From positions 6,113 to 70,112 of the forward strand of contig JBHPHK010000004.1 of NCBI GenBank assembly GCA_042569365.1: a DNA stretch of 64,000 bases, read 5' to 3'. A program made the translations under genes and the position numbers. Source of the stretch: Patescibacteria group bacterium. Its GTDB lineage: Bacteria; Patescibacteriota; JAUYIX01; JBHPHK01. Shown piece by piece: positions 3,006 to 38,345 of the stretch (positions are counted from its first letter, which is position 1; the number at the start of each line of letters is the position of its first letter). The notes under the pieces are model-generated. The model did not search any database. It was not told the origin of the DNA and worked only from the letters and a program-made list of their open reading frames with translations.

Positions 3006-3023
3006 AACTAAAAACTCAGTGGT

Positions 3024-9445: not shown

Positions 9446-9512
9446 ACATTTCTTCAAAAACGTGTAATATCTAGATGCGGGGGCAGATGGGCTAGCTGAC
9501 TCTTTTTTATCA

Positions 9513-10661
9513 ATGCGAATCGTAAACCTACAACTAGATAGTTACCGTAACTACGATAAAATCAACCTTACTTTAAATAAGGGGGTTAATATTTTCCGTG
9601 GTTCGAATGCAAGCGGCAAAACGAATCTTTTAGAGGCGATTAGCCTTTTTGTTTTGGGGGGATCGTTCCGAGCACAAGATTTATTTTTAATAAAATATGA
9701 AGAGCCAGCCGCACACGTGTCTCTCAAAATAAAATCTGACCAGGAAAACAAATTAAAGGTAAGTTTGGGAACGACCGACAAGGGCTTAAAGAAAGTTTGG
9801 AAGAAAAATGATATGGGCTCTCAGTTTAGTTATTTGCGCAAGGATCTTCTCGGCGTTCTGTTCTTGCCGACCGACACAGAGTTCGTAACTGGTTCGCCAC
9901 AGATCAGGCGCCAATTTTTCAACCGCGTTTTGTCGCAGATCGATCGCGACTATGCACAAACCCTTTTTCAATATAATAAAACTCTCAGGCAACGAATCTT
10001 TTCTTTGAAAAGAGTGCGTCAAAAATATTCTTTCGAAAATGAGCTTGATACGTGGGACGAAACGCTAGTCAAATATGCCGTGCCTTTGTATCAGGCGCGC
10101 GAAGCACTGGTAAAAAAACTTAATCGTTATTTATCTGAGATTTATAGCGATGTTATTCGGGGAAAGGCGGAGTTGAAGATCGATTATAAGGCATCACCGG
10201 ATGGGATTTTGCTCGAGGATGATCTGGGTCTGCGCCTTTCTGATCAGCTGATCGCTTCGCGCGAACGAGATCTTTCGCGAGTGCGTACGCACAACGGTCC
10301 TCACAGAGACGACTGGCAGTTTATGCTTAATGGAAACCCTCTGAGCGAAACCGGATCGCGCGGAGAGCAGCGCAGTGCAATTATCGCGATGAGGGTTGCC
10401 GAGGCGCGCGTCATTGAAGAAGTATCTAAGCACAGGCCGGTTCTTTTGCTGGATGATGTTCTGTCAGAACTAGATCAGCAGCGCCGCGAGACGTTACTTG
10501 AGATCGTTAAGGAATACCAGACGATTATTACGACTACTGATGTTGATTTTCTAGCCAACCATTTAGACATACTCAGCGATGTTAAGCTGTTTGAGGTTTC
10601 ACAAGGTAAAGTAAAATCAATCAAGCTTGATGATGCAAAAGCTTTATATTTTTCAAACTAA
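9513..10661 (+). CDS. recF: DNA replication/repair protein RecF
   Basis: It has the Walker A motif GSNASGKTNLLEA and the signature/Walker B region (LLLDDVLSELD). It follows the dnaA-dnaN-recF synteny. Confidence 0.9.
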   Translation: MRIVNLQLDSYRNYDKINLTLNKGVNIFRGSNASGKTNLLEAISLFVLGGSFRAQDLFLIKYEEPAAHVSLKIKSDQENKLKVSLGTTDKGLKKVWKKNDMGSQFSYLRKDLLGVLFLPTDTEFVTGSPQIRRQFFNRVLSQIDRDYAQTLFQYNKTLRQRIFSLKRVRQKYSFENELDTWDETLVKYAVPLYQAREALVKKLNRYLSEIYSDVIRGKAELKIDYKASPDGILLEDDLGLRLSDQLIASRERDLSRVRTHNGPHRDDWQFMLNGNPLSETGSRGEQRSAIIAMRVAEARVIEEVSKHRPVLLLDDVLSELDQQRRETLLEIVKEYQTIITTTDVDFLANHLDILSDVKLFEVSQGKVKSIKLDDAKALYFSN

Positions 10662-15989: not shown

Positions 15990-16502
15990 ATGAGCACGAA
16001 ACGTCCAAATATTATTCTCGGGATTGATCCGGGCATCGAACGGACAGGATTTGGAATAATCGAGTCAGCCGGAAAAAATATCAAACTGATCGACCAGGGG
16101 TGTATCACTACCAGCAGTAAAGATACGGCAGCACAGCGCTTGCTCGATATCGAAGAAGATCTCCAAGAATTATTAGCTCAGCATAAGCCCAATACATTGG
16201 CTATCGAAAAATTGTTCTTCGCAAAAAATGTAACATCAGCATTGGCAGTCGGTCAGGCACGCGGCGTTATCTTGCTGACGTGCGCTAAGGCAGGGCTAAG
16301 CATTTTTGAATACAATCCTATGCAAGTCAAAGTCGCGGTGACCGGATACGGGGGAGCGGACAAAGAACAGATGGAAAAAATGGTGCAAAAGTTGATGAAC
16401 TTAGACTTCGTACCAGCTCCCGATGATGTAAATGATGCGCTCGCACTCGCAATCTGTCACGCGCATAACCAGTCGTTCATTGAAGCGGCTGCCAAAAAAT
16501 AA
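15990..16502 (+). CDS. ruvC: Holliday junction resolvase RuvC
   Basis: It has the patterns ILGIDPGIERTGFGII and DDVNDALALAICH. It forms the typical yebC-ruvC pair. Confidence 0.9.
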   Translation: MSTKRPNIILGIDPGIERTGFGIIESAGKNIKLIDQGCITTSSKDTAAQRLLDIEEDLQELLAQHKPNTLAIEKLFFAKNVTSALAVGQARGVILLTCAKAGLSIFEYNPMQVKVAVTGYGGADKEQMEKMVQKLMNLDFVPAPDDVNDALALAICHAHNQSFIEAAAKK

Positions 16503-16512
16503 TATCTCTAAA

Positions 16513-18027
16513 ATGAAAAATCCAAATAAATATATCATTCCAATATTACTATCAGCTCTGATTTTGTTTGGGGTTGGTTTACAAGGAGTAGGTGCTCAAG
16601 AGCTAGAAGCTGAACAACAGCTCGAGATTGTTAATCTTTCTGGTACTGATGCATTAATTAATGAAGCAGTCAGCTTTACTGTGCCTAGCGCAGATGACGA
16701 AGATCAGGTCATCTGGAATTTTGGCGACGACACTGTCGTGACGGGCAAGACTGTCGAAAAGACATATTCTGAAACAGGGGTCTATGATATAAGCGTGAGC
16801 GTTATTGCGAGCGATGGCACCTTAGAGGTCGGTACGCTGGCAGTTTCAGTTTTCTCTGAATACATTGTTGCGCTTATCGACAGAAGCGTCATGGCCGAAG
16901 AAATTAAAACGCTAGCGACGACTGCCGCCGAGCATAATATCTATTTAAAGACTTTGAGAGCAGATGAGCTCCAGACTCTATACCAACGGGAAAGGTCGTT
17001 GACGGACTTGTTAGTAAATACAGCGCCTGTCTTGAGTCAGGCTAAGTTGCTGATTGACTGGACCCAGGGTACGGTTGGCTTAGCGTCTTTGCTGGCAGCA
17101 CAACAAGCGCCCAATGCTGTTCCCCTAGATCTGAGCAATCAAATTATCATAAGCGTCACGAAGACAATATCTTTCGACAAGCGTATCGCTCAACTTACAT
17201 ACGACGTTATCAATCCGGTTGGTTTAGTGTTAACAGAAAAGGAGACACTGCCAGTCTTGGTGGCTAGCGAATCGCTTAGAGATGTTACAGAAAATCTTCA
17301 GCAGACCGGTACTAATTTCGAAATCATTCAACAAACATCACCGCCTTTGTCAGAGCGCGTAAGTATCGTCAATTTCTTTTTTCCCGGCGTAGAATTTGTT
17401 GCTAAGCGAGGATTGCCACTGAATACGCTTGTCATCTTTCTTGCGCTTCCTTTGATCGCATTATTCTTTATCATCGGCAAACAAGTTATCGGCCTGCGCA
17501 CCTTTGGTTTGTATATTCCTGTTCTTTTGACGGTAGCTTTATTGCCACTCGGGCTTGTGACCGGCCTCGTTGTGTTTCTTGGATCACTCTTTATTACAGA
17601 ATTGATTCGACCGTCGTTTAGATGGATGCGTTTATCTTTCTTACCGCGGTCTGCGATCATGGTAACGGCAATCACACTTCTGTTTCTTGGATTTTTTGTA
17701 GTGGCTGGCACGCTTGACTACATACATCTCCTGCCATACGCAATTTTCCCTGCGCTTCTGTCTATTCCTCTGATTGAGAAGTTTGCTTCAGTACGAATCG
17801 AGAAGAGTCGCTCGGCAGCTATTCGATATACATTGGAAACGATGTTGATGGTCGTTATTAGTTTCGTCGTTATCAATTTACCGGTGATAAATACGCTGAT
17901 TATCAGTTACCCTGAGACGATTATCATTGTGGCTTTGCTTGCTTTCTTGGTAGGGCGCTTTACAGGCTTAAGAATAGTGGAATATTATCGTTTCCAAGAT
18001 CTAATTCGCGCATTGCGTCGCGACTAA
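16513..18027 (+). CDS. signal peptide + PKD domain + central domain + C-terminal ~7-TM module protein
   Basis: My preferred start is MKNPNKYIIPILLSALILFGV, a signal-like sequence. The PKD motif WNFGDDTVVTGKTVEKTYSETGVYDISVSV is present. The last 200 aa are multi-pass hydrophobic, like the 7TM module that accompanies RimK-type ATP-grasp genes. Confidence 0.7.
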   Translation: MKNPNKYIIPILLSALILFGVGLQGVGAQELEAEQQLEIVNLSGTDALINEAVSFTVPSADDEDQVIWNFGDDTVVTGKTVEKTYSETGVYDISVSVIASDGTLEVGTLAVSVFSEYIVALIDRSVMAEEIKTLATTAAEHNIYLKTLRADELQTLYQRERSLTDLLVNTAPVLSQAKLLIDWTQGTVGLASLLAAQQAPNAVPLDLSNQIIISVTKTISFDKRIAQLTYDVINPVGLVLTEKETLPVLVASESLRDVTENLQQTGTNFEIIQQTSPPLSERVSIVNFFFPGVEFVAKRGLPLNTLVIFLALPLIALFFIIGKQVIGLRTFGLYIPVLLTVALLPLGLVTGLVVFLGSLFITELIRPSFRWMRLSFLPRSAIMVTAITLLFLGFFVVAGTLDYIHLLPYAIFPALLSIPLIEKFASVRIEKSRSAAIRYTLETMLMVVISFVVINLPVINTLIISYPETIIIVALLAFLVGRFTGLRIVEYYRFQDLIRALRRD

Positions 18028-18031
18028 ATTA

Positions 18032-19519
18032 ATGCCTAGCATCAATACAGAAATTTTAGGGATGAATGCCAGAAATTCAGTTTATCTAAGACCGAATAAT
18101 TTGAGGAGCGCAGTAAGATTGGCAGACAACAAACTGGAAACTAAAAGAATCTTACGTCGCTACGGCATGCCAACTCCAAACTTGTTGGCGGTTATCCCAA
18201 CTGCTCGTGAGTTAGATGAGTTTGACTGGGCACAGATGCCAAGTAGTTTTGTGATCAAGCCTAACGGAGGGCTAGGTGGAGAGGGCATTATTATTTTGAA
18301 AAAGAAATACAGTCCCAAAAAAGAAAAGGAATCGGGATTAGGCAATGTATTCGGATTAGTGCGTGAAGAAAGCGATGAACCAGCTTGGGTTGGGTCAGAT
18401 GGTCGTATTTGGACCGCATCGAAACTGAAAGTGCATGTAGCCAACATATTGAGTGGTAATTTTTCGATCGCTGGTACTTCAGATATTGCCTTAATAGAGC
18501 AAAGAATCAAGCTTGACCCTATCTTTAAGCCGATTACTCCGAGTGGAATTCCTGATATTCGTGTAATTGTTTTTAATAGAGTGCCAGTGATGGCAATGCT
18601 CCGGTTGCCAACAAAACGATCTAATGGAAAGGCAAACTTAGCGTTGGGAGCAATCGGTGTTGGAATCGATCTGGCAACGGGGATGGCCACAAGTTCATAT
18701 GTTAAAAAGCCACGACGCCAAATCATTGAACGTCATCCAGACACGAATGAACCCCTATCTAATATAAGAATTCCATACTGGACTACGATTTTAAAAATGA
18801 GCATAGAATGTCAGGTGGCAAGTCGACTAGGATTTTTGGGCGTGGATTTAGCATTGGATAAAAATTACGGGCCAATGGTTGTTGAGCTGAATGCAAGACC
18901 CGGCTTAGAAATTCAATCTGTTAATCAAGCATCTCTGCGCCGGCGTTTACGCCGTCTATATGGACTAAAAGTTCGTACAATTAATAAAGGAGTAAAGGTT
19001 GCCAAGGAATTGTTTGGCGGCGATACCGAGACAACTGAAGAGGACAGACCTGTATTAGGAATTATCGAACCAGTAGAAGTATATCAACACAAAAGCAGTA
19101 AACGAGAAAAGATTTTGGCAAAAATAGACACAGGTGCGACATACACTTCTATCGATCGCGATGTTGCGGCGCGACTTGGATACAAAGGCGTCATTTCTGC
19201 CTTTAGAAAATACGGACTCGATAAAACTATGACCAGAACCAAGGCGCGCAGAAGTTATCAGCGTTTCCGAAAAGAGATTTTGCAGAAATACTCGAAAGAA
19301 ATCGTGGATACGCGCATTATTCACTCCAGTCACGGTACGACTTATCGCATTTTGATTCCTCTAAGGTTCATGCTGTCTAATGAATTAGTCGAAACGAATG
19401 CCACGGTCATGGTCCGCAAGCATTTGCGCTATCCTATCATTATCGGCCAGCGAGATTTGAAGAAATATATCGTCGATCCGTCCAAACGACGCCATCATAT
19501 TAAAACTTTCTCACGCTAA
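18032..19519 (+). CDS. ATP-grasp (RimK/alpha-L-glutamate-ligase-like) fused to a retropepsin-like C-terminal domain
   Basis: The N-terminal 330 aa have an ATP-grasp pattern (FVIKPNGGLGGEGIIIL, DIRVIVFNRVPVMAMLRLP, VVELNARPGLEI). The C-terminal domain has the aspartic-protease-like motif AKIDTGATYTSID. It begins 5 nt after the 7TM gene. Confidence 0.75.
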   Translation: MPSINTEILGMNARNSVYLRPNNLRSAVRLADNKLETKRILRRYGMPTPNLLAVIPTARELDEFDWAQMPSSFVIKPNGGLGGEGIIILKKKYSPKKEKESGLGNVFGLVREESDEPAWVGSDGRIWTASKLKVHVANILSGNFSIAGTSDIALIEQRIKLDPIFKPITPSGIPDIRVIVFNRVPVMAMLRLPTKRSNGKANLALGAIGVGIDLATGMATSSYVKKPRRQIIERHPDTNEPLSNIRIPYWTTILKMSIECQVASRLGFLGVDLALDKNYGPMVVELNARPGLEIQSVNQASLRRRLRRLYGLKVRTINKGVKVAKELFGGDTETTEEDRPVLGIIEPVEVYQHKSSKREKILAKIDTGATYTSIDRDVAARLGYKGVISAFRKYGLDKTMTRTKARRSYQRFRKEILQKYSKEIVDTRIIHSSHGTTYRILIPLRFMLSNELVETNATVMVRKHLRYPIIIGQRDLKKYIVDPSKRRHHIKTFSR

Positions 19520-19531
19520 ACTTTAAACTTT

Positions 19532-20575
19532 ATGAAAATAGCTCACCTAACACCAAGCGTTACAAGATTCCCTCCTCGTGGAGACCAGGGACGTTATCGT
19601 TTGGTAAATCTATTAATCGAAGGGCTTAGTGCAAAAAAACATAAAGTAACTTTGTATGCTCACAAGGACTCAACGACCAGTGCTGAACTTATTTCGATTG
19701 ATTCCTTACCGCTTGAGGGCCGTTCTCGTATAGAGAAATTGAAGAATGTGACCCTCTCCACTAATTTATTGATTTCAAGGGCTTATCAAGACGCAAAGAA
19801 GTATGACGTTATTCATAGTCACTTCAATGATAAGCATCTAATGTTTAATGCCTTAGTCGATGTTCCGACAGTTGTTACTCAGCATTGGCCAATAACTGAA
19901 GAGATGGATCATATTTTAAGTCAGGCAAATCTAAAAAATTTACATATCGTTCCGATCTCCAAGGCGCAGAAAAAAGCTAATCCAAAATTGCCATACACTC
20001 AAGTCGTTTACAATGGCATAGAGGTAGACAAGTTCAAATTTCGACCTGAATCAGGCAAATATCTAGCAAACTTAAGTCGTGTTATGCCTGAAAAAGGCAC
20101 TCGTGATGCGATTAAAGTGGCTAATAAAGCAAAATTGCCTTTGGTGATCGCAGGAAAATCTAAACATAGTGATAAGGCGCGGGCATATTGGCCGGAGGTT
20201 GAGAAGGCTCTCATTAAATCGGCTTATGCGAAATACCGCGGCATGATTCCACACAAAGAAGTGTCAAACTTTTTGGGACATGCCAAAGCTCTTATCTTCC
20301 CGATCAAGTGGGAGGAACCTTTTGGGTTGGTCATGATCGAAGCGATGGCTACCGGCACACCGGTGATCGCGTATGGACGCGGGTCTGTCCCTGAGATTGT
20401 GAAAGATGGCGTGACAGGGTTTATTGTGAATTCTGTGCGGGAGATGGCAAAGGCTGTTAAAAAAATTGATCAGATCGATCGCGCCGCTTGTCGTAAACAT
20501 GTGGAAGACAATTTTTCTGTACAGCAGATGGTGGAAGGTTACGAAAAAGTTTATAAATCACTAAAGAAAAAATAA
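19532..20575 (+). CDS. GT4 glycosyltransferase, paralogue 1 of 3
   Basis: 347 aa. It carries the conserved block WEEPFGLVMIEAMATGTPVIAYGRGSVPEIV..GVTGFIV, which is shared with the next two genes. Confidence 0.85.
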   Translation: MKIAHLTPSVTRFPPRGDQGRYRLVNLLIEGLSAKKHKVTLYAHKDSTTSAELISIDSLPLEGRSRIEKLKNVTLSTNLLISRAYQDAKKYDVIHSHFNDKHLMFNALVDVPTVVTQHWPITEEMDHILSQANLKNLHIVPISKAQKKANPKLPYTQVVYNGIEVDKFKFRPESGKYLANLSRVMPEKGTRDAIKVANKAKLPLVIAGKSKHSDKARAYWPEVEKALIKSAYAKYRGMIPHKEVSNFLGHAKALIFPIKWEEPFGLVMIEAMATGTPVIAYGRGSVPEIVKDGVTGFIVNSVREMAKAVKKIDQIDRAACRKHVEDNFSVQQMVEGYEKVYKSLKKK

Positions 20576-20578
20576 ATT

Positions 20579-21634
20579 ATGCGTATTGCGCAGGTTGCTC
20601 CGCTTTATTTGCCAGTTCCTCCACCGGGTAGGGGCGGTATTGAGCTGATGGTTTCATATTTAACTGAAGAATTAGTGAAACGCGGGAACGACGTAACGCT
20701 TTTTGCGAGTGGAGATTCACAGACAAGCGCAAAGCTAGTGAATGGTGCTAAAAAAGCGTTCACTTTTGAAAAAGATTTTGAAAATTGGCAGAAAGGCAAG
20801 TCGAGTGCGCTGACAACTCAACATATTGAGAAAGTATTTGAGCAAGCTGACCAGTTTGAAATCATTCATGGCCATTTTAATCAAATATTCCCGACTGTCG
20901 CTGGTAGATCTAAGACACCATCGGTAATGACGTATCATTTACCGATCAAGCCAGAAGCACATGACAAATATCTGAAGACATCGAACTGTCATTTCGTGTC
21001 ACTGACCAAATCACAGCAGGCTGGCCTGCCAAATTTTATAGGAACTGCACCGAATGGTATTCCGATTGATAAAATTCCGTTTAATGCCAAAAAGAAGAAC
21101 GAACTGATTTTTGTCGGGCGCATGGCTACAAAAAAAGGTCCGCATTATGCAATCGAAGCAGCAGAAAAAACTGGCTTGCCGCTGTTTATGCTCGGAAAAT
21201 CATATCCAAACATCGCAGAATACTGGCAGTACTATCAAGAAAAAGTTAAGCCAAGAATCGATGGAAAGAAAATCAAACACATAGAAGAGGTGTCAAATGT
21301 TGAGGCGCTCAAATATATGAGTCAGGCGCGTGCCTTGCTGATGCCGATCGAATGGGAAGAGCCTTTTGGTCTGGTCATGATCGAGGCAATGGCTACCGGT
21401 ACGCCGGTGATTGCCTTTAGGCACGGTTCTGTTCCAGAAGTAATTGTGGATGGCAAAACAGGCTTTATTGTTGATACAATAGAAGAGATGATTGAAGCGA
21501 TCGGAAAGCTTGATCAAATCAATCCGGCAGATTGTCGCAAACATGTAGAACAAAACTTTACGGTCGAGAAAATGGCTGATGCTTATGAAAATATTTATGA
21601 AAAAATCCTCAAACAAGGCTCCCACAAAAAATAA
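20579..21634 (+). CDS. GT4 glycosyltransferase, paralogue 2 of 3
   Basis: 351 aa. It shares the C-terminal block (WEEPFGLVMIEAMATGTPVIAFRHGSVPEVI) and has the N-terminus MRIAQVAPLYLPVPPPGRGGIE. Confidence 0.85.
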   Translation: MRIAQVAPLYLPVPPPGRGGIELMVSYLTEELVKRGNDVTLFASGDSQTSAKLVNGAKKAFTFEKDFENWQKGKSSALTTQHIEKVFEQADQFEIIHGHFNQIFPTVAGRSKTPSVMTYHLPIKPEAHDKYLKTSNCHFVSLTKSQQAGLPNFIGTAPNGIPIDKIPFNAKKKNELIFVGRMATKKGPHYAIEAAEKTGLPLFMLGKSYPNIAEYWQYYQEKVKPRIDGKKIKHIEEVSNVEALKYMSQARALLMPIEWEEPFGLVMIEAMATGTPVIAFRHGSVPEVIVDGKTGFIVDTIEEMIEAIGKLDQINPADCRKHVEQNFTVEKMADAYENIYEKILKQGSHKK

Positions 21635-22766
21635 GAAACTCAAAATCGCTTTTAACTTAGCGCAGCTCTATGCGCTGCCTGAGGCGACACGAGGTGGCAT
21701 TTTCGCACCACTCACTTTAACGCAGGATATTATTGAGGGGCTAGTCGCGCGCGGTCATCATGTCACTTTCTATGGCCCGCCTGGCGTAAAAACAAAAGCC
21801 CAGAAAAATGTCAGTGGAGATGTTCGCGCTATGCGTAAAGATCTGCGCGATCTTAAGTTGAGCTTTTCTGAATATCATGAACAATACGGTCCGCGCTTTA
21901 ATAACGCCTATCATCATCACGAAAATACTTTAGCGTCAGCACTTATTCAAGATGAACAGAAAGGTAAATTCGATATTATTCACGACTACCATAGTCAGCT
22001 TCTGGTATATCTGGCGCCGACCATCAAAACTCCAACGGTTTTCACACTTCATGATCCTGCGCCAAAAGGCCAGTTTGGCCAGATTCATTTTCAGGATCGA
22101 ATGAAAATGTATGCGAAAAATAATTACATCGCAATCAGTAAACGTCAGGGGCAGCTGATGCCAGGCATAAACGTAAAGAAAGTAATTCATCATGGCATAA
22201 GTCTGCGCCACTGGAAGTTTCAGGTAAAAGCTAAAGGTGACTATCTCGCATTTCTAGGGCGCATTACTCCTAAAAAAGGCTTGCATACAGCGATCGAAGT
22301 TGCAAAACAAACTGGATTGAAGTTACGGATTGTCGGAAAACCTTTCTCGGATCGACCAGATTCATATTGGGCTAAGAAAATTAAGCCACAGATCGATGGT
22401 AAGCAAATTATTTATGATGGATATCACAATCCAAAAGAACATAAGTATCTGTCAGATTTCTTAGGAAACGCAAAGGCATTCTTGATGCCAATCGAATGGG
22501 AAGAACCTTTTGGTCTAGTCATGATCGAGGCAATGGCTACTGGTACACCGGTGATTGCGTTTAAGAAAGGCTCTGTTCCTGAAATCGTTCAACATAAAAA
22601 GACCGGTTTTGTCGTAAATACGAAAGCGCAAATGATAAATGCAGTGAAAGATGTTGATCAGATCAAGCGAGCAAATTGTCGTCGACATGTAGAGAAAAAT
22701 TTCTCGATCGAACGCATGGTGGATGACCACGAAAAACTATATTCTCGGCTAGCTAAGGGCAAATAG
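21579..22766 (+). CDS. GT4 glycosyltransferase, paralogue 3 of 3 (start uncertain)
   Basis: 395 aa with the same C-terminal block (WEEPFGLVMIEAMATGTPVIAFKKGSVPEIV). The 5' end overlaps paralogue 2 by 56 nt, and the true start may be ATG 21597. Confidence 0.8.
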   Translation: MLMKIFMKKSSNKAPTKNKKLKIAFNLAQLYALPEATRGGIFAPLTLTQDIIEGLVARGHHVTFYGPPGVKTKAQKNVSGDVRAMRKDLRDLKLSFSEYHEQYGPRFNNAYHHHENTLASALIQDEQKGKFDIIHDYHSQLLVYLAPTIKTPTVFTLHDPAPKGQFGQIHFQDRMKMYAKNNYIAISKRQGQLMPGINVKKVIHHGISLRHWKFQVKAKGDYLAFLGRITPKKGLHTAIEVAKQTGLKLRIVGKPFSDRPDSYWAKKIKPQIDGKQIIYDGYHNPKEHKYLSDFLGNAKAFLMPIEWEEPFGLVMIEAMATGTPVIAFKKGSVPEIVQHKKTGFVVNTKAQMINAVKDVDQIKRANCRRHVEKNFSIERMVDDHEKLYSRLAKGK

Positions 22767-26341: not shown

Positions 26342-27955
26342 TTATTCAGTTGAACCTTCGCGCTTCTCGCGCCGTCTCAGTCCGACGTAGCTGATCGCCG
26401 CAGTCAACGCAAGGCTTATTAAAATTGAGAACAGTAGAGTTGTAGATCCGGCCTGGAGAAGCGAATCTCCAATACCTCCGCCAGTCTCTGTAGAAATATC
26501 TGCATTGCTACGGGGGAGAATACGATAACCGCTGCTGGTTTGGCTGACGACGCCGGTGATCATAAAGAAGTCGCCTTTTTGTTTGTCGGGCAAGTCGATT
26601 TCCGTGTCCGGATCAACATATATCTTCACAGCTCCTGTGTCATCGTCGAGGTAAAAAGTAGAACCGCTCGTTTCCGTAATATTTCCTTGGACGCGCACTA
26701 ATTTGCCCTCGTAATCTTCATCTGTATCTCCAGTTTTAATATCTGTGGGCGTGATGGGCAGATTTGAGCTTAAAAATTCAATGTCAGATAGGTCAGAAAT
26801 TTTTAGCCGTGTTTCACCTTGGGTGGAGCTTAAAGTTCCTTTGATTTTCAACTTATCGCCTAATGAAAAGTCACTGACAGACAAAGTGCCGACATAAATT
26901 TGCATTCCGCCTGTAGAATCTTCGACGTAAAAATATTTCTCACTTAAAACTCCGGGCTTGACCGTAACAATTGCTTCAACTAAGGCTTCTGCATCAGGAT
27001 CTAGCGTGCGTGCTTCTGCAATGGTCAAGACTTCGTCTGTTGGATCGGGATCAACGGGATCAGTTGGGTCTACAGGATCAATCGGATCGTCTGTAACTAC
27101 GACAGTAGCAACTTCAGAATTTTCAGACTGAGCTCCGTGGGAATCAGTTAATGTTATGCTGACGGTATATTCTCCAGGTGTATCATAAATATATTCTCCG
27201 GACATCTCTGTACTCACTCCTCCATCGCCGAAATTCCAAGCAGCCGTGAAAGAATCGTTTTCTGGATCGGTTGAGATCGCGGCATTATAGGTAGCCGTAA
27301 GAGGCGCTTCGCCTTCATCTGGCGTAATTATCGCTGTGATCTGCGGTGCATCGTTATTATCAATACCAGGACTGGAGCCAAAGGCGTTGGCGCTCTGTGA
27401 CCAATTCATAGGCTCGTTAGTGAGTTCGGGAGAGTTCTTCTCCCAGGAAATTCCTTCGCCTGCGTCACCGGACCAGTCAAAGACGTCAATAATATTTCCA
27501 GTGAAGTCTGTGAGTGTTAAAGTGTCGCCGCTGTTTCCGAGTCCGTTGCCAATACTGGTATCGGCGTAGACTTTGATCATAATAGTTGTGGCGGGATCTG
27601 CATTGGCGGTCAGAAAATCGTTATATTCTCCGGCATACTCCGGGTCAACGATAATAGCACGCGCACCCGGCTCCAAAACTGTCCCTGCTTTGCCCCAGTC
27701 ATAGAGGGTCGTATAGTCTTCGAAAACATCGTTATTATCGGCCGGGTCACCCAGCATCCAGCGCCAGAGATCGATCTCAGAGTCGCCAAGATTGATAAGT
27801 TCGACAAATTCGCCCGTGTCTTCATCGAGCGGGTTGGCCATAACTTCTGTGATACGGATTTGTGATAATACTTCAGCTCGGACAGGACTGATATTAACTG
27901 CAAAACTCGTAAATACAAACGTTAAAATAGAAAAGAGGGCAATAGATTTTTTCAT
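26342..27955 (-). CDS. surface protein: signal peptide + lamin-tail domain + PKD + two OB-like domains + C-terminal TM anchor
   Basis: My preferred start is ATG 27955 (MKKSIALFSILTFVFTSFAVNISPVRA). It has the LTD motif RITEVMANPLDEDTGEFVELINLG and a PKD motif (WNFGDGG). The C-terminus is LLFSILISLALTAAISYVGLRRREKRE. The 91 upstream codons of the track ORF run through a terminator and a mini-ORF. Confidence 0.75.
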   Translation of the reverse strand: MKKSIALFSILTFVFTSFAVNISPVRAEVLSQIRITEVMANPLDEDTGEFVELINLGDSEIDLWRWMLGDPADNNDVFEDYTTLYDWGKAGTVLEPGARAIIVDPEYAGEYNDFLTANADPATTIMIKVYADTSIGNGLGNSGDTLTLTDFTGNIIDVFDWSGDAGEGISWEKNSPELTNEPMNWSQSANAFGSSPGIDNNDAPQITAIITPDEGEAPLTATYNAAISTDPENDSFTAAWNFGDGGVSTEMSGEYIYDTPGEYTVSITLTDSHGAQSENSEVATVVVTDDPIDPVDPTDPVDPDPTDEVLTIAEARTLDPDAEALVEAIVTVKPGVLSEKYFYVEDSTGGMQIYVGTLSVSDFSLGDKLKIKGTLSSTQGETRLKISDLSDIEFLSSNLPITPTDIKTGDTDEDYEGKLVRVQGNITETSGSTFYLDDDTGAVKIYVDPDTEIDLPDKQKGDFFMITGVVSQTSSGYRILPRSNADISTETGGGIGDSLLQAGSTTLLFSILISLALTAAISYVGLRRREKREGSTE

Positions 27956-28044
27956 AAACGATAGATTAGATAAATTAATTTTCTCCAATCTAACACGGCG
28001 CGCATTAAGAAAATCTAAAAAAACAATTAAACTATTTTCACAAA

Positions 28045-28092
28045 ATAAAAAAAGGCTCCCCCTGGAGAAGAAAGGTAGAAAAGAGGGGGAGC
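28045..28092 (-). terminator. rho-independent terminator closing the mini-ORF pair
   Basis: The minus strand reads GGCTCCCCCT-(20-nt loop)-AGGGGGAGCC followed by TTTTTTTATTTT. Confidence 0.7.
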
Positions 28093-28149
28093 CAAGGAGA
28101 AGAAAGGTTATGATGGCCTGCATCTTCTCTGAATGCGCCGAGTGTGGTC

Positions 28150-28221
28150 TTAGTCGGTGACGCAGTCCTTGGAAATAACGGCACCGAAACATCGCGTGCC
28201 TGTACAGCCGAAGTGTCGCAT
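28150..28221 (-). CDS. mini-ORF, 23 aa, MRHFGCTGTRCFGAVISKDCVTD
   Basis: It is preceded by ACAAGGAAGG about 7 nt before the ATG. Its SD context and first 9 nt (ATGCGACAC) are shared with the upstream mini-ORF. It contains three Cys and is below the track cutoff. Confidence 0.45.
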   Translation of the reverse strand: MRHFGCTGTRCFGAVISKDCVTD

Positions 28222-28287
28222 AGAACACCTTCCTTGTTGAGGTTAACAGAATTGGTGGCCAGTCTTCGTTTCAAAGAAGCAGACGAG

Positions 28288-28395
28288 CTAGCCGCCGCCA
28301 GTGGAGGCGCCGAAGAGTATTCCGGTCGTTTCGGAGGTTTTGTTGCCAGCGGCGGTGTCTCTCATACCGCCGGCACAGCCGCCAAGGTGTCGCAT
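28288..28395 (-). CDS. mini-ORF, 35 aa, MRHLGGCAGGMRDTAAGNKTSETTGILFGASTGGG
   Basis: It is preceded by ACAAGGAGAA 6 nt before the ATG. It shares the motif TSE[TN]TGIL with the 47-aa ORF at 28929..29072. Confidence 0.5.
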   Translation of the reverse strand: MRHLGGCAGGMRDTAAGNKTSETTGILFGASTGGG

Positions 28396-28524
28396 AATAG
28401 TTCTCCTTGTAATGGTTTATTTTAAGGCTTAATAAGCCTGTTATTTGTAAGCTGCAATCCATTTATATTATAACCTCTGAAAATAGCAAAAACAAGCAAG
28501 GCGTATTATTTAGGTTTCACAATG

Positions 28525-28669
28525 AAAAAGCGCCCTCCCGGAGTGGTCACAAGGGGAGGGCGCGAAGTGATCTAATCCGGGAAAATTCCCGGAAAAGTGG
28601 GGGCATTACCATGTATGTGGCATTCGAGGGTGCCGCATACTTAGGTTAACGATCTCGAGGCAATCGTTA
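28525..28669 (-). ncRNA. candidate small RNA (~145 nt) or leader, class unknown
   Basis: A promoter lies directly upstream. Four hairpins can be drawn: AACGAT..ATCGTT, GTATGCGGCA..TGCCACATAC, CCGGGA..TCCCGG and GCGCCCTCCC..GGGAGGGCGC+TTTTT. The loops and linkers are C-rich (CCUCGA, CCCUCGA, GCCCCCA). No sensible ORF is present. Confidence 0.5.
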
Positions 28670-28675
28670 CTCAAT

Positions 28676-28704
28676 ATACTAGGTGCAATAGAAGTTTTTG
28701 TCAA
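28676..28704 (-). promoter_or_regulatory. sigma70-type promoter (TTGACA-17-TAGTAT)
   Basis: The minus strand has an exact -35 at 28699..28704 and a -10 at 28676..28681. Confidence 0.5.
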
Positions 28705-28711
28705 GAGTTTT

Positions 28712-28754
28712 AAGGTAAAAGAAATAGAGCGCTCCCTAGAAGGAAGCGCTCTAT
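28712..28754 (-). terminator. rho-independent terminator after the 47-aa/14-aa mini-ORF unit
   Basis: The minus strand reads ATAGAGCGCTTCC-TTCT-AGGGAGCGCTCTAT followed by TTCTTTT. Confidence 0.6.
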
Positions 28755-28801
28755 GATGCGTCAAATTTTTCGATTTTGTCCCTTGGGACGTTTGTACAGA
28801 C

Positions 28802-28846
28802 TTAGACGAACCCTGACTCGTATCTCTGCAAATCAGAAACCGTCAT
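28802..28846 (-). CDS. mini-ORF, 14 aa, MTVSDLQRYESGFV
   Basis: A perfect AAGGAGGAA lies 6 nt upstream of the ATG. The ORF sits 82 nt after the 47-aa ORF and just before the terminator. Confidence 0.35.
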   Translation of the reverse strand: MTVSDLQRYESGFV

Positions 28847-28928
28847 AGGGTGTTCCTCCTTGCGGATGTGCCGTCACGGCTGGATTTTTCTTTGTCAGGT
28901 TTGCGACAACTTGCTGTGGACTCAGCTC

Positions 28929-29072
28929 TTAGTTACCGCTTACCGCGTCGAGAAAGGCTTTGTTCCGGCAGTCCTCATTCGCGAGAATGCCAGTGTTTTC
29001 GCTTGTGTGCGCGTTCACCGCGACTTTCTTCTTGTTTTCGCTGGTGTCAGGGTCTTTATTATGGAGGTTCAT
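28929..29072 (-). CDS. mini-ORF, 47 aa, MNLHNKDPDTSENKKKVAVNAHTSENTGILANEDCRNKAFLDAVSGN
   Basis: This is an internal ATG of the 71-aa track ORF, preceded by AAGAGG 9 nt upstream. It is hydrophilic and shares TSENTGIL with the 35-aa mini-ORF. Confidence 0.5.
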   Translation of the reverse strand: MNLHNKDPDTSENKKKVAVNAHTSENTGILANEDCRNKAFLDAVSGN

Positions 29073-29170
29073 AGGCAAGTACCTCTTTTTTGTCTGCGCC
29101 GTATAAATACGGCTCTGGTAATGTTCGAGTTTCGGGAATAACACGACCCGGGGTAAGGAGTGTTTAAGTA

Positions 29171-29199
29171 AATATACTTTTCCCAGCGCGTTTTGTCAA
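29171..29199 (-). promoter_or_regulatory. sigma70-type promoter (TTGACA-17-TATATT)
   Basis: The minus strand has exact hexamers and lies about 90 nt upstream of the 47-aa ORF. Confidence 0.55.
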
Positions 29200-29211
29200 T
29201 TGTGTATAAAG

Positions 29212-29243
29212 AAAAAAGCGCCGCTGATTAAGGCGACGCTTTT
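29212..29243 (-). terminator. rho-independent terminator after the 4-TM protein gene
   Basis: The minus strand reads AAAGCGTCGCC-TTAATCA-GCGGCGCT followed by TTTTTT. Confidence 0.6.
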
Positions 29244-29269
29244 ATGGTTTGATTTTTGAAGTTGGCTGG

Positions 29270-29707
29270 CTAGTCATCATAGTCCAAGTGCTGAAGTTTC
29301 AGATTAACTTCGCAGAGCCGAGCGGGAATTTCCGTGGCCCAGAAGCCTAATTGTAAGAAACAAATCGGAATGGGCCAGATCAGCCACAAAAGCAGTTTGA
29401 CGATCTTGGTGAGCGTCCGTTGCTGGTTGCAGAAAAGGTAAGAGAGAGTCAAGACCAGCATGAGCAGATGCGGGAAATAGTAGACGCCGACTTCGTTTAA
29501 GGAAAACTGGAAAATAATCCAGGGCGCTACCGTGTACAAGAAGGTGTCAGAGAGATTCAAAGGCTGAGTGTCAACGATTGTGAAGAACAGGGAAAGCATA
29601 AAAAATATGCACACGGCCGCAATCGTCACGCGTCCCGCATTGCCAGGACCGCCTTCCAGATCTTTAAGGCTGTTCAGCCATCTGATCAGCGAGAAAGTTC
29701 TTTTCAT
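29270..29707 (-). CDS. small polytopic membrane protein (145 aa, ~4 TM), hypothetical
   Basis: TAGGAGGCACCCAAA precedes the ATG. Four hydrophobic helices are visible, and I recognise no family motif. Confidence 0.65.
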   Translation of the reverse strand: MKRTFSLIRWLNSLKDLEGGPGNAGRVTIAAVCIFFMLSLFFTIVDTQPLNLSDTFLYTVAPWIIFQFSLNEVGVYYFPHLLMLVLTLSYLFCNQQRTLTKIVKLLLWLIWPIPICFLQLGFWATEIPARLCEVNLKLQHLDYDD

Positions 29708-29778
29708 TTTGGGTGCCTCCTATAGGTTACGGTTAAACAGAAAGATGGTTGTTATAAGTTGTTAAACAGCGATATATG

Positions 29779-29807
29779 ATGCTAACAAAATGCCCCGGCT
29801 TTGTCAA
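29779..29807 (-). promoter_or_regulatory. sigma70-type promoter (TTGACA-17-TAGCAT)
   Basis: It reads on the minus strand and lies about 70 nt upstream of ATG 29707. Confidence 0.5.
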
Positions 29808-29844
29808 GCTGGAAAGAGAGTTAGTAAAAGAGTTGTATTGTGGT

Positions 29845-31050
29845 CTAAGCCTTCTTCTTCCTCAAATCAAAACTAATATTCTTGCTTGCTTCTACCTGAG
29901 GCTGATCAAAAGGATTAACTCCGCGCATCCAGCCAGAGTACACCGCAGCATACTGCAGGAAGCCCATCAGTTCGCCGACATTCTCTTCATCCAGCTTTGT
30001 TATCGAAGTCGTGATGACTGGAATCCCGATATTGATCGCATCCTCATAAGTACCACGGTATTCATACTCCATAACCTTCGAGAGAGGAATGTCATCCAAA
30101 TCCGCGAGCGTCCCATCACGCAGAGGAATGTCACCGATCTCTTCCGGAATATATGTTGCGTGATCATGGAAAAAAGTCTCCGGACGAATAAACCAACCGA
30201 CCACGTTCTTGCCTCCACCAAAGAAACGCTGGTTGGTGTGGTGCTGAGACTGCGGGCCTTCGGCGCCGTACATAGTTTGGCCGCCGCCCTCTTTACTGAC
30301 GGATTCATGGAAAAGCTGGACGATCAATTCTGAAATACCGGCTAGTTCATGTGAATAGATTGGGAAAAATATTTCACTGAAACCTTTTTTCTCCAACTGA
30401 TAGAAAGCGGCTGCCACTTGTAGGGCAGGATTTTTTTCCAGCGGAACGGAAGGCGCGCACTTAGCATGCATGCTCTTAAAACCGGCATGGAGTTTGTCGA
30501 TATCAATCTCGAGCAAAGCAGTTGGGAGGAGGGCAGCCTCTGTGCCACCGATAAAACGACCGCCAATGTCCGGGTGCATGAAAGTCTTCCATTTGAGGCG
30601 ATCGGCTATTTCTCGCAGAGCTCCGTTGGGACCTGTGATCGCCGCAATCTTATATTTATGTCGTGAAAAGAATAGTGTGTTTTCGAGTTGTTCGACGTTG
30701 GTACCGGATTTGCTGATCGTTACCACGACAGAATTATCTGCCGGAGCAAAGCGCATCAGGTGTTCCAGATAGTTTGGATCAGACGTGTTGCAGATGAAAA
30801 CTTTGTGTTTGGATTGATGCCAGCCCAGGGCCTCGTAGATCGCCTTGTAGCTGGTGATCGAGCCACCGCGGCCGACGACAATAATGTTGCGGGCATTGCA
30901 ACAGGTCTTCACAGATTCCTTGATTCCTTCCAAGTCCGCTTCGTATTGTGCGAAAGCGGGAACTTTTTGTTTGGCAATAGAGGCGAGCTCTTTTTTAAGC
31001 CCTGCGCCGATGTCTTTGATAGTTGTGTGTTGTAGGTCGTTTTTAAGCAT
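29845..31050 (-). CDS. pgi: glucose-6-phosphate isomerase (short SIS-type PGI)
   Basis: 401 aa with PGI-type motifs (IVVGRGGSITSYKAI, VVTISKSGTNVEQ, GGRFIGGTEAALLP, NPFDQPQVEASK). Confidence 0.8.
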   Translation of the reverse strand: MLKNDLQHTTIKDIGAGLKKELASIAKQKVPAFAQYEADLEGIKESVKTCCNARNIIVVGRGGSITSYKAIYEALGWHQSKHKVFICNTSDPNYLEHLMRFAPADNSVVVTISKSGTNVEQLENTLFFSRHKYKIAAITGPNGALREIADRLKWKTFMHPDIGGRFIGGTEAALLPTALLEIDIDKLHAGFKSMHAKCAPSVPLEKNPALQVAAAFYQLEKKGFSEIFFPIYSHELAGISELIVQLFHESVSKEGGGQTMYGAEGPQSQHHTNQRFFGGGKNVVGWFIRPETFFHDHATYIPEEIGDIPLRDGTLADLDDIPLSKVMEYEYRGTYEDAINIGIPVITTSITKLDEENVGELMGFLQYAAVYSGWMRGVNPFDQPQVEASKNISFDLRKKKA

Positions 31051-32195: not shown

Positions 32196-32890
32196 TATTG
32201 CTGATGATCAGTATTTGTCTGTGTAGCAGAAGGGGTCGTAGGATGTTGCGGAACACCTGTCTGGCTTTGCTGACGCACAATCTGAATAATATTATCAAGC
32301 TCAAGTGTCCTGCCGCGTACATTTTCCCATGAACGGTACATGTTCTGTAATTCCTTTTCCCCGTGGCGGTTATACTGGTCGCGCAGATGGATGATGATGT
32401 CCGAAATTTTCTCAGGATGGGATAGTTTCAAAAATTGGAAAAGTTCTACAGCAGCAGCGGTCTGGATCAGAAGCGTGCCGAACTGCATGAATGTAGGAAT
32501 CACTCCGACTATTTTTGTCGAGACGTCCTGGATCTCCGTTAGAGACAGTTCAGAAACACTACGGTTGAACAAAGCATTTTGTTTGATCTGTACAACGCGG
32601 GAGGTCGTCACGATAAAAACATCCAGATAATAATCGATCCAGCCAATAAACAAGAACAGGAACAAGAACATTAAAAACATGACAGAGAGAAGCTGGATGA
32701 TGCGGCCAGTTTCCTCTCGTGCCAATTCGGGAAAGAAATATCCCAGGGCGAAAATCAAGGCAGTGAAAAGTACGGCCAAAATTACTGTGAAAGTGACGTG
32801 TCCTAGGAAAACTGTCCAGTGGCGACGCATAAAGACGATGATGCGCTCATCGGGTCTTTGGTTTGGGAAATAGTGGGCAGCGTCTTGCAT
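32195..32890 (-). CDS. membrane protein with bacterial PH (bPH_2/YdbT-like) domain
   Basis: Two N-terminal TM helices are followed by the pattern DVFIVTTSRVVQIKQNALFNRSVSELSLTEIQDV. The call is by motif only. Confidence 0.55.
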   Translation of the reverse strand: MQDAAHYFPNQRPDERIIVFMRRHWTVFLGHVTFTVILAVLFTALIFALGYFFPELAREETGRIIQLLSVMFLMFLFLFLFIGWIDYYLDVFIVTTSRVVQIKQNALFNRSVSELSLTEIQDVSTKIVGVIPTFMQFGTLLIQTAAAVELFQFLKLSHPEKISDIIIHLRDQYNRHGEKELQNMYRSWENVRGRTLELDNIIQIVRQQSQTGVPQHPTTPSATQTNTDHQQ

Positions 32891-32901
32891 AATGTGAGAG
32901 T

Positions 32902-33261
32902 TTAAACAGGGGCAATTGCCAAGACAGCGCCGATTACTGCAAGAGCAACTGAGAGGCCGATAAAAATCAGGGTACTAACCAAAGATTGGTCGCCCTTAAA
33001 ACCGTATTTGAGCATATGGTAAACGGCGAATGCAGCAAAGGTGATATAGACAGCAATAAATATAAAGAAGATTATTTGGAAGATCAGCAGGGCAAGATCT
33101 CCAATCTCATCAGCAAAAAAGAATGTGACAGCGACAGCGCCGCCTATCAAAAGCACGCCAATTGATGTAAAAGTAATCAGCGGTGCGTTGCGGCGCTTGT
33201 CTTCCATGGGTGGCTGAACGATATGTTCGCCAAATTGTGGTCGGTCTGGATCTCCTAGCAT
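32902..33261 (-). CDS. small membrane protein (119 aa, 3 TM), hypothetical
   Basis: The ORF has three clear hydrophobic helices and is tightly spaced with the next gene. Confidence 0.55.
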   Translation of the reverse strand: MLGDPDRPQFGEHIVQPPMEDKRRNAPLITFTSIGVLLIGGAVAVTFFFADEIGDLALLIFQIIFFIFIAVYITFAAFAVYHMLKYGFKGDQSLVSTLIFIGLSVALAVIGAVLAIAPV

Positions 33262-33348
33262 AGTCAGGAATGTATTAATAATCGATTTAATTATAAGTAA
33301 AGACGCTTAGATAGGCCAGAGGACAAGGAATAGACCTGATTCTTAGAG

Positions 33349-34392
33349 TTAAAGAAGTTTATCTGGACCGTTTTCTGGCGGTTCAATATCTAAATGCTTG
33401 TAGGCCTTTTCAGTGGCGGAACGTCCACGTGGTGTACGTGCCAGAAATCCTCCCTGCAGCAAAAATGGCTCGATAACTTCTTCGAGAGTGTCTTCTTCGG
33501 CCGCGGTAGCTGCAGCAAGAGTACCAATACCAACTGGTCCGCCCTTGAATTGTTCTATTATAGTATTTAAAATGCGCCGGTCGTTTTCGTCGAGGCCTTC
33601 CGGGTCGATACTTAAAAGATCCAAAGCTTCGAGGGCTAAGTCTTTCGTTATTTTTCCGTCACCTTTGACTTGGGCATAGTCTCTAACACGTTTTAATAAA
33701 CGATTGGCGATACGTGGTGTGCGGCGCGCTCTTTGTGCGATTGCTTCGATCGAATCTGCGTCCGCATTAACATCTAAAATCTTTGAGGAACGCTCCAAGA
33801 TATCTTTAATTTCATCTTCAAGGTAAAAGTCCAGCTGGTGTGTAGCACCAAAGCGATCACGGAATGGGGAAGAGAGTAGACCGATGCGTGTAGTTGCTCC
33901 GATAATAGTGAAACGGGGGAGGTCTAGTCTAATGGATTTTGCGGAAGGGCCTTTGCCGATCACGATGTCGAGGACGTAGTCTTCCATTGCCGGGTATAGC
34001 ACCTCTTCTACGATTTTATTCATGCGGTGGATTTCGTCTATAAAGAGAACGTCATTATCTTCCAAGTTTGTGAGGATCGCACCAAGGTCGCCTGCTTTTT
34101 CAATGGCGGGGCCGGATGTCGTTTTGATATTCACGCCCATTTCATTGGCGATGATGTTGGCAAGCGTAGTTTTGCCAAGACCGGGAGGGCCGTAAAGCAG
34201 CACATGTTCGATCGGCTCTTTTCTCTTTTTAGCCGCCTCCATAAATATATTCAAATTGTCTTTAACCTTTTTCTGGCCGACGTAGTCCTTTAGTTTTTTC
34301 GGGCGTAGGCTAAGATCTAGCGAAGCATCTTCGTTTTCTGGCGTAGGAGAGACTACGCGGTCGATCTTTTTCTTTTTGCGTTCAATAGCCAT
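33349..34392 (-). CDS. ruvB: Holliday junction branch migration helicase RuvB
   Basis: It has the Walker A motif [11 protein letters not shown], the Walker B motif LFIDEIH and the pattern [15 protein letters not shown]. Confidence 0.95.
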
Positions 34393-37949: not shown

Positions 37950-38345
37950 TTATTTTTTGATTAATCTATAGAACAGACTGCCAAAACAGATAGCACTGAC
38001 GATAGTGGTACAAATGTACGTTGCTATGACAATGAGGCATGATTTGTCGCTATAGATAGTATAGCTTGGAGCTACGCAGTAGACGCAGACGATACCGATA
38101 ATCAGATGATAAATCATATAGATTATGTTGCAGCGTCGGAAATATCTGTAAGGTATATCTGTAAACAGCGTTGTCAACGTTGTGAAAGCCACAAAAGCAA
38201 TGATCAGATATGACCAAATGCCGACAACTTCCACTTTATCAGTGAGTGCGCCGTGCATGATGCCACAGATCAGGAGAATTGATAATAGTACTGTTGCTCC
38301 GAACATGGTCCAGAGGCTAGCAACAACTTCACTTTTTGCAGACAT
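37950..38345 (-). CDS. hypothetical 4-TM membrane protein (131 aa), self-contained cassette
   Basis: AGGAGGCATTCT precedes the ATG. The promoter is TTGACA-17-GAGAAT (38394..38422). The terminator at 37915..37940 has a 7-bp GC stem plus a U-run. Confidence 0.6.
   Translation of the reverse strand: MSAKSEVVASLWTMFGATVLLSILLICGIMHGALTDKVEVVGIWSYLIIAFVAFTTLTTLFTDIPYRYFRRCNIIYMIYHLIIGIVCVYCVAPSYTIYSDKSCLIVIATYICTTIVSAICFGSLFYRLIKK

Follow-up and report, generated by a model that had tools for sequence, protein, structure and literature searches.

A candidate family of short mosaic proteins encoded in an intergenic gap of a Patescibacteria genome and of one related genome

Class II bacteriocin and prochlorosin-like loci carry multi-copy precursors together with a small membrane immunity protein, and dual-function small RNAs (sRNAs) such as SgrS/SgrT, RNAIII/delta-haemolysin and SR1/SR1P encode a small protein. 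Sberro et al. (2019) reportedly recovered orphan small-protein families by comparative genomics of microbiomes. Microbiome small-protein families are also gathered in the GMSC catalogue (PMC11364881). Here we describe a 1.3-kb gap between annotated genes in a 64,000-nucleotide (nt) stretch, called the window at its full length, of contig JBHPHK010000004.1 from a Patescibacteria group bacterium (assembly GCA_042569365.1). Three minus-strand open reading frames (ORFs) in this gap, B, D and A, appear to be members of a lineage-restricted, rapidly diversifying family of paralogous small proteins of 23-65 amino acids (aa) and, judging from the comparisons below, it is likely that these homologous ORFs are translated. 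The family is new and consists of unannotated orphan small proteins present so far in two related Patescibacteria genomes only. With two genomes and sequence-based evidence, the finding is a lead rather than a discovery. As in other orphan small-ORF families (PMC11364881), the products are shorter than 70 aa and missed by annotation (B and D are absent from the protein collection), they match no domain, and they are recognised by conservation, Shine-Dalgarno (SD) sites and synonymous variation. Two points set it apart from those families: a profile search of 1.84 billion representatives turned up its own members and no other, and a single genome contains several mosaic copies, an arrangement atypical for catalogued families.

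The gap is bounded by the gene of a small membrane protein and by a gene encoding a protein with LTD and PKD domains (26342-27958), and three transcription units occupy its minus strand. Units 1 and 3 each correspond to a small bicistronic mRNA, with D plus C in the former and B plus A in the latter; unit 2 is a structured RNA. In the order of transcription, the features are:

29270..29707, minus strand: 145-aa polytopic membrane protein (MFC1632777.1, locus tag ACFL1U_01375), directly 5' of the cluster, with an AGGAGG SD site
29171..29199, minus strand: unit 1 promoter, TTGACA-17-TATATT (11/12), with its -10 region conserved in the related genome
28929..29072, minus strand: ORF D, 47 aa, MNLHNKDPDTSENKKKVAVNAHTSENTGILANEDCRNKAFLDAVSGN, first cistron of unit 1, with the N-terminus MNLHNKDP, the motif TSENTGIL and the C-terminus DAVSGN
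28983..29006, minus strand: TSENTGIL motif in D, ACA AGC GAA AAC ACT GGC ATT CTC
28802..28846, minus strand: ORF C, 14 aa, MTVSDLQRYESGFV, second cistron of unit 1, SD AAGGAGGA, outside the motif family
28724..28754, minus strand: unit 1 intrinsic terminator, 14-bp stem plus T-run, conserved in the related genome
28525..28704, minus strand: unit 2 (promoter, structured RNA of ~145 nt and its own terminator), between the two mini-ORF operons
28676..28704, minus strand: unit 2 promoter, TTGACA-17-TAGTAT
28467..28495, minus strand: unit 3 probable promoter, TTGTTT-17-TATAAT, read by eye and below the scan threshold, with TATAAT conserved in the related genome
28288..28395, minus strand: ORF B, 35 aa, MRHLGGCAGGMRDTAAGNKTSETTGILFGASTGGG, first cistron of unit 3, SD AAGGAGAA, with MRHLGGCAGG, TSETTGIL and GASTGGG-stop
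28315..28338, minus strand: TSETTGIL motif in B, ACC TCC GAA ACG ACC GGA ATA CTC
28150..28221, minus strand: ORF A, 23 aa, MRHFGCTGTRCFGAVISKDCVTD, second cistron of unit 3, a truncated family member, SD AAGGAAGG
28054..28094, minus strand: unit 3 intrinsic terminator, GGCTCCCCCT...AGGGGGAGCC followed by T7, its position conserved in the related genome

The related genome was reached through the flanking genes. The protein of the 26342-27958 gene (LTD, PKD and OB-fold; minus strand) has a counterpart with 100% identity at NCBI, from a "Patescibacteria group bacterium". Among 5.8 billion clustered proteins, it had a single close relative (74%), as had the phosphoglucose isomerase (PGI) encoded nearby (83%), and both of these relatives are encoded on Logan contig DRR203715_337 (13,997 nt; L002 hereafter, of which L001 is a sub-range). 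Since each flanking gene has one close relative, all comparative inference rests on two genomes, those of the window and of L002, and homology and motif statistics refer to a six-frame database of both (~156 kb, 156,000 positions). The plus strand of L002 keeps the order of the window (D1', D2', C', structured RNA and B'), and a second cluster (E1, E1b and E2) lies directly 3' of a gene for a paralogous membrane protein (1106-1492, 128 aa):

L002 10772-10897, plus strand: D1', contains TIETTGIL
L002 10980-11123, plus strand: D2', starts with MNLRNKDP, motif lost
L002 11216-11260, plus strand: C', MLVSDLQRYESGFV, orthologue of C
L002 11653-11835, plus strand: B', 60 aa, contains TVENTGIL
L002 second cluster: E1, 65 aa, MRNLGCVGSTRHFGASGTPKSKDCVTDFRPGSGGGGVKLGDNTETISVLDEVGLDLRVGASTGGG
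L002 second cluster: E1b, 9 aa, MRNFGAVIS
L002 second cluster: E2, 42 aa, MRYSDCASSKDCVTDFRPKPKEETEIVLENTGILLGASAGGG

The mosaic family comprises eight of these ORFs, namely A, B and D in the window and E1, E2, B', D1' and D2' in L002; TSETTGILFGASTGGG is an example of the peptides predicted from them. In tblastn searches of the six-frame database, A matched the N-terminal half of E1 (5e-5), B matched B' (1e-5) and the C-terminus of E2 (9e-4), E1 matched E2 (2e-6), and D matched D2' (0.03). The ORFs can be aligned (alignment A4) over four blocks, M[RHN]x[LF]G[CG], [SN]KD[CP]VTDFRP, GG[CG]xGG[VM][KRQ] and T.E[TN]TGIL, and they finish in one of two ways, GAS[TA]GGG-stop in B, E1 and E2 or KD[VA]x[ST]Gx-stop in D, D1' and B'. 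A hidden Markov model (HMM) built from this alignment retrieved these ORFs and, weakly, D2' from both contigs and otherwise matched nothing; D, which aligns with the family in A4, scores an E-value of 4e-21 as one of the training members of the model. From the last block, E[TN]TGIL occurs five times in the six-frame positions of both genomes, where 0.006 occurrences are expected, and every occurrence lies within a small SD-bearing ORF on the strand of the promoters and terminators. Its codons vary among the copies, with all three isoleucine codons (ATA/ATT/ATC), CTC or TTG for leucine, GGA or GGC for glycine and ACC or ACT for threonine in use.

This block includes the octapeptide from which the earlier note had argued, from the window sequence, that B and D are translated homologues under selection at the peptide level. 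The octapeptide is indeed one of the conserved motifs of the family, and the two coding sequences read exactly as claimed, with two identical codons, five synonymous ones (including the TCC/AGC serine pair) and one non-synonymous codon. A second TSEN is likewise present in D (29034-29045, minus strand). The two TSEN of D sit on a 15-nt direct repeat (28994-29008 and 29033-29047; 14/15 identical, 39 nt apart), so that the second one, a small internal DNA duplication or its remnant, provides no independent evidence. TSE[TN]TGIL has no other occurrence in the six frames of the window. By itself, the match between B and D is not above chance: across all six frames, the window has 574 pairs of stop-free octapeptides that agree at 7/8 positions or more, and in 12 of these pairs the members are less than 1 kb apart, as against 60-93 pairs (~77) in 20 shuffles, with 0-7 (~2 on average) at that distance. 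A 7/8 match at less than 1 kb thus arises about twice per shuffled window, and when B is the tblastn query, D is found in the window at E = 0.77. The codon argument is moreover circular unless homology is shown independently, because an accidental peptide match also gives mostly synonymous differences. The homology of B and D is demonstrated, by sequence comparison, only through L002. There, the orthologous loci do conserve the motif, as TIETTGIL, TVENTGIL and LENTGIL in three small ORFs with SD sites, so that the proposal of homologous, translated mini-ORFs under peptide selection gains its support from L002, the in-window evidence originally offered for it being insufficient.

Several features suggest that the ORFs are translated. 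All 11 small ORFs of the two genomes have AAGGAG or GAGGT 6-9 nt 5' of their ATG; in D the site is AAGAGGT, 8 nt from the start codon, in a context shared by D1' and D2'. Elsewhere in the window, AGGAGG precedes four of 42 long genes and a 5-mer SD occurs at 4% of all ATGs. Most window genes have A/T-rich upstream regions that lack an SD site; the 16S rRNA gene lies outside the window, and some Parcubacteria are devoid of the anti-SD sequence (PMC9297842). Given the four long genes with AGGAGG at canonical spacing, the SD mechanism nevertheless appears functional in this genome:

29270-29707, minus strand: long gene with AGGAGG (the 145-aa membrane protein)
37950-38345, minus strand: long gene with AGGAGG
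48704-49648, plus strand: long gene with AGGAGG
51162-52634, minus strand: long gene with AGGAGG

The pattern of substitutions points in the same direction. In SKDCVTDFRP, E1 and E2 differ by seven third-position changes and zero amino-acid changes, and the differences in the peptide-similar blocks fall on the three codon positions as 13/11/41, a count biased towards the third position because the blocks were picked by peptide similarity. The B-A and E1-E1b units are homologous in their spacers too, and their indels are multiples of three within the ORFs, 1-nt indels being found only in the spacers. The generic features of small-protein genes (SD site and start codon, conserved frame, synonymous excess) are thus present, although they do not cleanly exclude the antisense strand. 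Transcription signals, namely the scored promoters (11/12 and 10/12) and four terminators with a T-tail, are on the minus strand throughout and have conserved counterparts in L002. The conserved DNA blocks of the region are the unit 1 5' untranslated region (UTR), ~95 nt long and conserved in L002, the C region, the 3' half of the unit 2 RNA and ACAAGGAGAAYTRYTATGCGA. Of all elements in the region, ORF C, with its perfect SD AAGGAGGA, shows the highest conservation; it differs from its orthologue (MLVSDLQRYESGFV) by six synonymous and one non-synonymous codon changes; one antisense frame of this region is equally conserved, and C overlaps a predicted hairpin. The unit 2 RNA folds into four hairpins (z = -6.6 against shuffles) and contains no ORF of the motif family. 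In its L002 counterpart (~11370-11540, plus strand), the 3' half, consisting of UUCGGGAAUUUUCCCGGAUUAGAUCACUU and the terminator, is nearly unchanged, and the 5' hairpins have another sequence.

Other observations weigh against translated small proteins. The comparison involves two genomes, too few for a formal codon-model test, D is only 34% identical to its positional orthologue D2', in which the motif is lost, and some copies (the truncated A and E1b, the latter reduced to MRNFGAVIS) resemble decaying fragments. Together with the spread of lengths (9-65 aa), the restriction of the family to two genomes and a B-D match that is by itself at chance level, this would fit homologous but functionless ORFs, that is, decaying duplicates or fragments in which the octapeptide is residual similarity. 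We consider this quite unlikely, since the motif is kept in five copies that are otherwise at 35-45% identity with many indels, the promoters, SD sites, start codons and terminators are intact in both genomes, and SKDCVTDFRP remains identical in E1 and E2 despite its silent changes. Units 1 and 3 are also more structured than their shuffles (z = -5.2 and -3.1, respectively), which makes a role as RNA possible: they could be non-coding or cis-acting RNAs whose conserved blocks and AAGGAG boxes matter at the RNA level, the ORFs being incidental. The structured RNA between the two units, the overlap of ORF C with a 15-bp hairpin, the better conservation of the unit 1 5' UTR and of the surroundings of C than of most of the D coding sequence, and the rarity of SD sites among the other genes, in a group where the anti-SD can be missing (PMC9297842), would all agree with it. 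We hold it to be unlikely all the same, because the motif copies vary mainly at third positions (three isoleucine codons, CTC/TTG), which preserves neither the sequence nor any obvious pairing, indels are in-frame within the ORFs and out-of-frame in the spacers, start and stop positions are kept across paralogues, and SD-led initiation seems to work at the four long genes. In addition, Rfam gave no match at E-values up to 10, and the stem of the C hairpin differs by six changes between the window and L002, three of which break pairs.

The antisense strand raises a different difficulty. Both antisense frames are almost stop-free (three stops each over all 11 ORFs), the one that shares wobble positions scores nearly as well as the sense frame in pairwise comparisons, and codon usage fails to separate sense from antisense, the plus-strand ORF 28144-28425 (93 aa) scoring as coding with gene-like usage. 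In the relative, the Prodigal-type caller applied to the Logan contig selected an antisense ORF of 86 aa (L001 8825-9085, minus strand). The real genes might then be the longer plus-strand ORFs, such as 28144-28425 or 28860-29141 (also 93 aa), an explanation that we find highly improbable: a plus-strand promoter was not found in the region, every strong terminator is minus-oriented, and the antisense ORFs have no SD site and would cross the complements of SD boxes, spacers and terminators. Besides, the antisense ORFs of homologous units are in different registers; those of B-A (direct register) and of the E1 unit (L002 1616-1843, wobble-coincident register) differ and therefore are not the same protein. 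That of B' is split into 28- and 36-aa pieces, and the C-terminal block of B and E2 is 79% identical in sense against 60% in antisense. We thus retain translated, homologous small proteins as the likely explanation.

If the ORFs are indeed such genes, the arrangement of the locus says something about how they evolve. The same elements recur between units, namely a promoter, an SD box, an ATGCGA start, a stop context and a terminator stem AGCGCTCC...GGAGCGCT, and therefore whole promoter-ORF-terminator units seem to have been duplicated. The motif DNA is moreover shared crosswise between copies that are not orthologous: D in the window (28983-29000) and B' in L002 (11767-11784) have 18 identical nt, GAAAACACTGGCATTCTC, while B in the window (28322-28332) and D1' in L002 (10823-10833) share GAAACGACCGG. 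Such a pattern suggests that the copies in units 1 and 3 have undergone gene conversion or recombination with each other. The family may accordingly evolve by whole-unit duplication, in-frame indels, exchange of segments between copies and truncation, purifying selection probably maintaining no more than a handful of short linear motifs (M[RH]x[LF]G[CG], [SN]KD[CP]VTDFRP, GGCxGG[VM][KRQ], T.E[TN]TGIL and a C-terminal GAS[TA]GGG or KD[VA]x[ST]Gx). The peptides would be made and act in trans, with their motifs docking on a partner. The family would in this way offer a compact case of tiny-protein evolution in which duplication, in-frame indels and exchange are free and short linear motifs are held. 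Patescibacteria (candidate phyla radiation, CPR) genomes are small, mostly uncultured and rich in unannotated space, and a 1.3-kb "intergenic" stretch with four likely small-protein genes and a structured RNA is gene content that the available calls miss or place on the opposite strand. It also flags a class of strong-SD genes in a genome where most genes have none.

The most visible candidate for a partner is the small polytopic membrane protein encoded next to the peptides. All three clusters lie directly downstream of paralogous small membrane-protein genes, and the 145-aa protein of the window is 45% identical to a 150-aa protein of L002 and 26-29% identical to its 128-aa protein. AlphaFold predicts several helices at low confidence for the 145-aa protein (predicted local distance difference test, pLDDT, 52), too poor a model for a fold search. 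Neither the membrane proteins nor the neighbouring orphan genes match a Pfam, NCBIfam or PADLOC family significantly. The L002 block 1062-3330 (the 128-aa membrane protein, E1/E1b/E2 and a 260-aa gene) is missing in the window between RuvB and a Yip1-like gene (32890-33349), and so are three membrane proteins, two of them paralogous, that L002 encodes between PGI and the 150-aa protein (7080-9862; 29707-29845 in the window). The mini-ORF clusters are therefore in or beside variable regions. We tentatively suggest that peptide and cognate membrane protein might form an accessory module, the latter acting in immunity, in export or in a receptor-like manner. Pfam searches covered 38 long window ORFs, the nine beyond 51 kb excepted, as well as the genes that flank the two L002 clusters, and they detected neither an enzyme that would modify peptides nor a dedicated exporter or other transporter for them; this counts against the functional guess, which has adjacency in its favour. 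A more elaborate version, in our view doubtful, would be a Patescibacteria-specific module of hypervariable peptides, either exported or put to use post-translationally via their conserved cysteines and Gly-Gly-Gly C-terminus, with a matching immunity or receptor protein in the membrane, that mediates strain competition or the interaction between episymbiont and host and whose diversity is made by exchange of motif cassettes. Should the association with the membrane protein prove functional, it might indicate that episymbiotic bacteria have an interaction system based on peptides.

Such a module would recall loci of bacteriocins or of ribosomally synthesised and post-translationally modified peptides (RiPPs), with which the present one shares tandem, fast-diversifying small ORFs with conserved blocks, an adjacent gene for a small polytopic membrane protein and a cluster located in a block missing from the related genome; the Gly/Cys-rich stretches GGCGGG and CGGCAGG bring to mind microcin B17-type cores. 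In contrast with the precursors of such loci, the present peptides are hydrophilic, neither amphipathic nor cationic, their conserved blocks are spread along the peptide instead of being confined to a leader, and they have no double-glycine leader followed by a core. The glycine run is the extreme C-terminus (GAS[TA]GGG-stop) and the sequence after the stop is not frame-conserved, which led us to reject both a double-glycine-leader bacteriocin or RiPP precursor and stop-codon read-through. We likewise rejected a bacteriocin or RiPP locus, for which no modification enzyme (YcaO, radical SAM or LanM) or C39-peptidase ABC exporter was found among the scanned window ORFs and the neighbours of the L002 clusters. 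Graspetide precursors are encoded beside their ATP-grasp ligase and have a core with Thr/Ser plus Asp/Glu (and Lys) in a fixed pattern. The motif region of the present peptides is rich in threonine and glutamate; the only ATP-grasp gene (18032-19519, ATPgrasp_ST-Zn_protease) is part of a glycosyltransferase operon on the opposite strand, at a distance of ~9 kb.

Across the family, the peptides have a grand average of hydropathy (GRAVY) of -1.5 to +0.1, up to 32% glycine (4-9% in the Gly-poor D-type members), zero to three cysteines and no hydrophobic stretch. They are probably disordered: AlphaFold gives no structure for E1 (pLDDT 49, too low for a fold search), which is compatible with disorder. 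In being small, Gly-rich, hydrophilic and probably disordered, with short repeated motifs and strong expression signals, they resemble the hydrophilins (KGG/GsiB, LEA_5); they differ by their Gly-poor D-type members and by cysteines, which are foreign to hydrophilins. A KGG/LEA_5 identity was rejected, as neither PF10685 nor PF00477 matched at E-values up to 10 and the family HMM misses the KGG genes of another Patescibacteria contig (L005), where two genes for small hydrophilic stress proteins of the GsiB/KGG type (375-870, minus strand) adjoin an LTD gene without being homologous by HMM. The same hydropathy values and the lack of a transmembrane segment exclude a type I toxin or another membrane-active small protein, and [LF]GC at residues 4-7 does not make a lipoprotein, as no hydrophobic region accompanies it. 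A microcin C-like peptide was discarded because a C-terminal asparagine is not conserved. Leader or arrest peptides of the SecM/MifM/TnaC kind resemble the present ones solely in having a conserved C-terminal motif beside the stop codon, and they were discarded since each unit closes with a strong terminator, the L002 E cluster being followed by a terminator and a convergent gene. With dual-function sRNAs, the transcripts have in common that they are short, structured and independently transcribed from their own promoter to their own terminator, with an SD-bearing small ORF and untranslated parts better conserved than part of that ORF; they differ by carrying two ORFs per RNA, by the paralogy of these ORFs and by the fact that no base-pairing target or seed was identified here. 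Pairing of the unit 2 RNA with the motif was dismissed, the match being of 6 nt only, as was a known Rfam family, given that nothing in the region matched at gathering score. As a leader plus core, linked enzymes among the scanned genes, KGG/LEA motifs, a transmembrane segment and a position in a leader, which define the specific families rejected above, were looked for and not found, we file the ORFs only as a new orphan small-protein family.

Wider searches retrieved no further family member. The eight peptides had no match in Pfam and NCBIfam at E-values up to 10. With Rfam, only tRNA reached the gathering score in the window, the best hit within 27900-29300 being RsaE (27 bits against a gathering score of 79). 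Exact look-up in a contig index found neither B nor D, the membrane protein of 145 aa was likewise missing from it, and a word-index protein search with D returned zero candidates. The earlier note had also proposed a profile search; built from E1, E2, B, A and D and run against the 1.84 billion representatives, it recovered the family's own E1 and E2 and no new member, a third match to a repetitive eukaryote-like protein being spurious. According to a local test, single-peptide queries cannot become significant at that database size. Among the GTDB genome contigs, nothing was found with the LTD protein or with a codon-degenerate DLQRYESGFV pattern, and the phage and plasmid collections held nothing relevant. 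The pattern of the C peptide had 0 matches in JGI metagenome contigs, whereas E[TN]TG[IV]L.G[AG][SC][TA]GG had one match there, inside a PilT-like ATPase gene and hence due to chance, and 0 matches in IMG/VR viral contigs. More distant LTD loci (L005-L010) contain no family member.

The rest of the neighbourhood in the window is made of housekeeping genes, including dnaA, dnaN, recF, PBP1, tRNA ligases, ruvC, ruvB, queA, pgi and clpB. On the plus strand, an operon at 16432-22766 encodes three GT4 glycosyltransferases, a ligase in which ATPgrasp_ST is joined to a RimB-like Zn_protease domain, and a membrane protein with PKD and 7TM_transglut domains. It is predicted to be an amidoligase or peptide-modification system, located ~9 kb from the mini-ORFs and with no link to them established. 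Finally, the PGI gene (29845-31050, minus strand) has its nearest homologues outside L002 at ~47% identity, and these are mostly annotated as DPANN archaea (Nanoarchaeota/Woesearchaeota), which hints at an inter-domain transfer.

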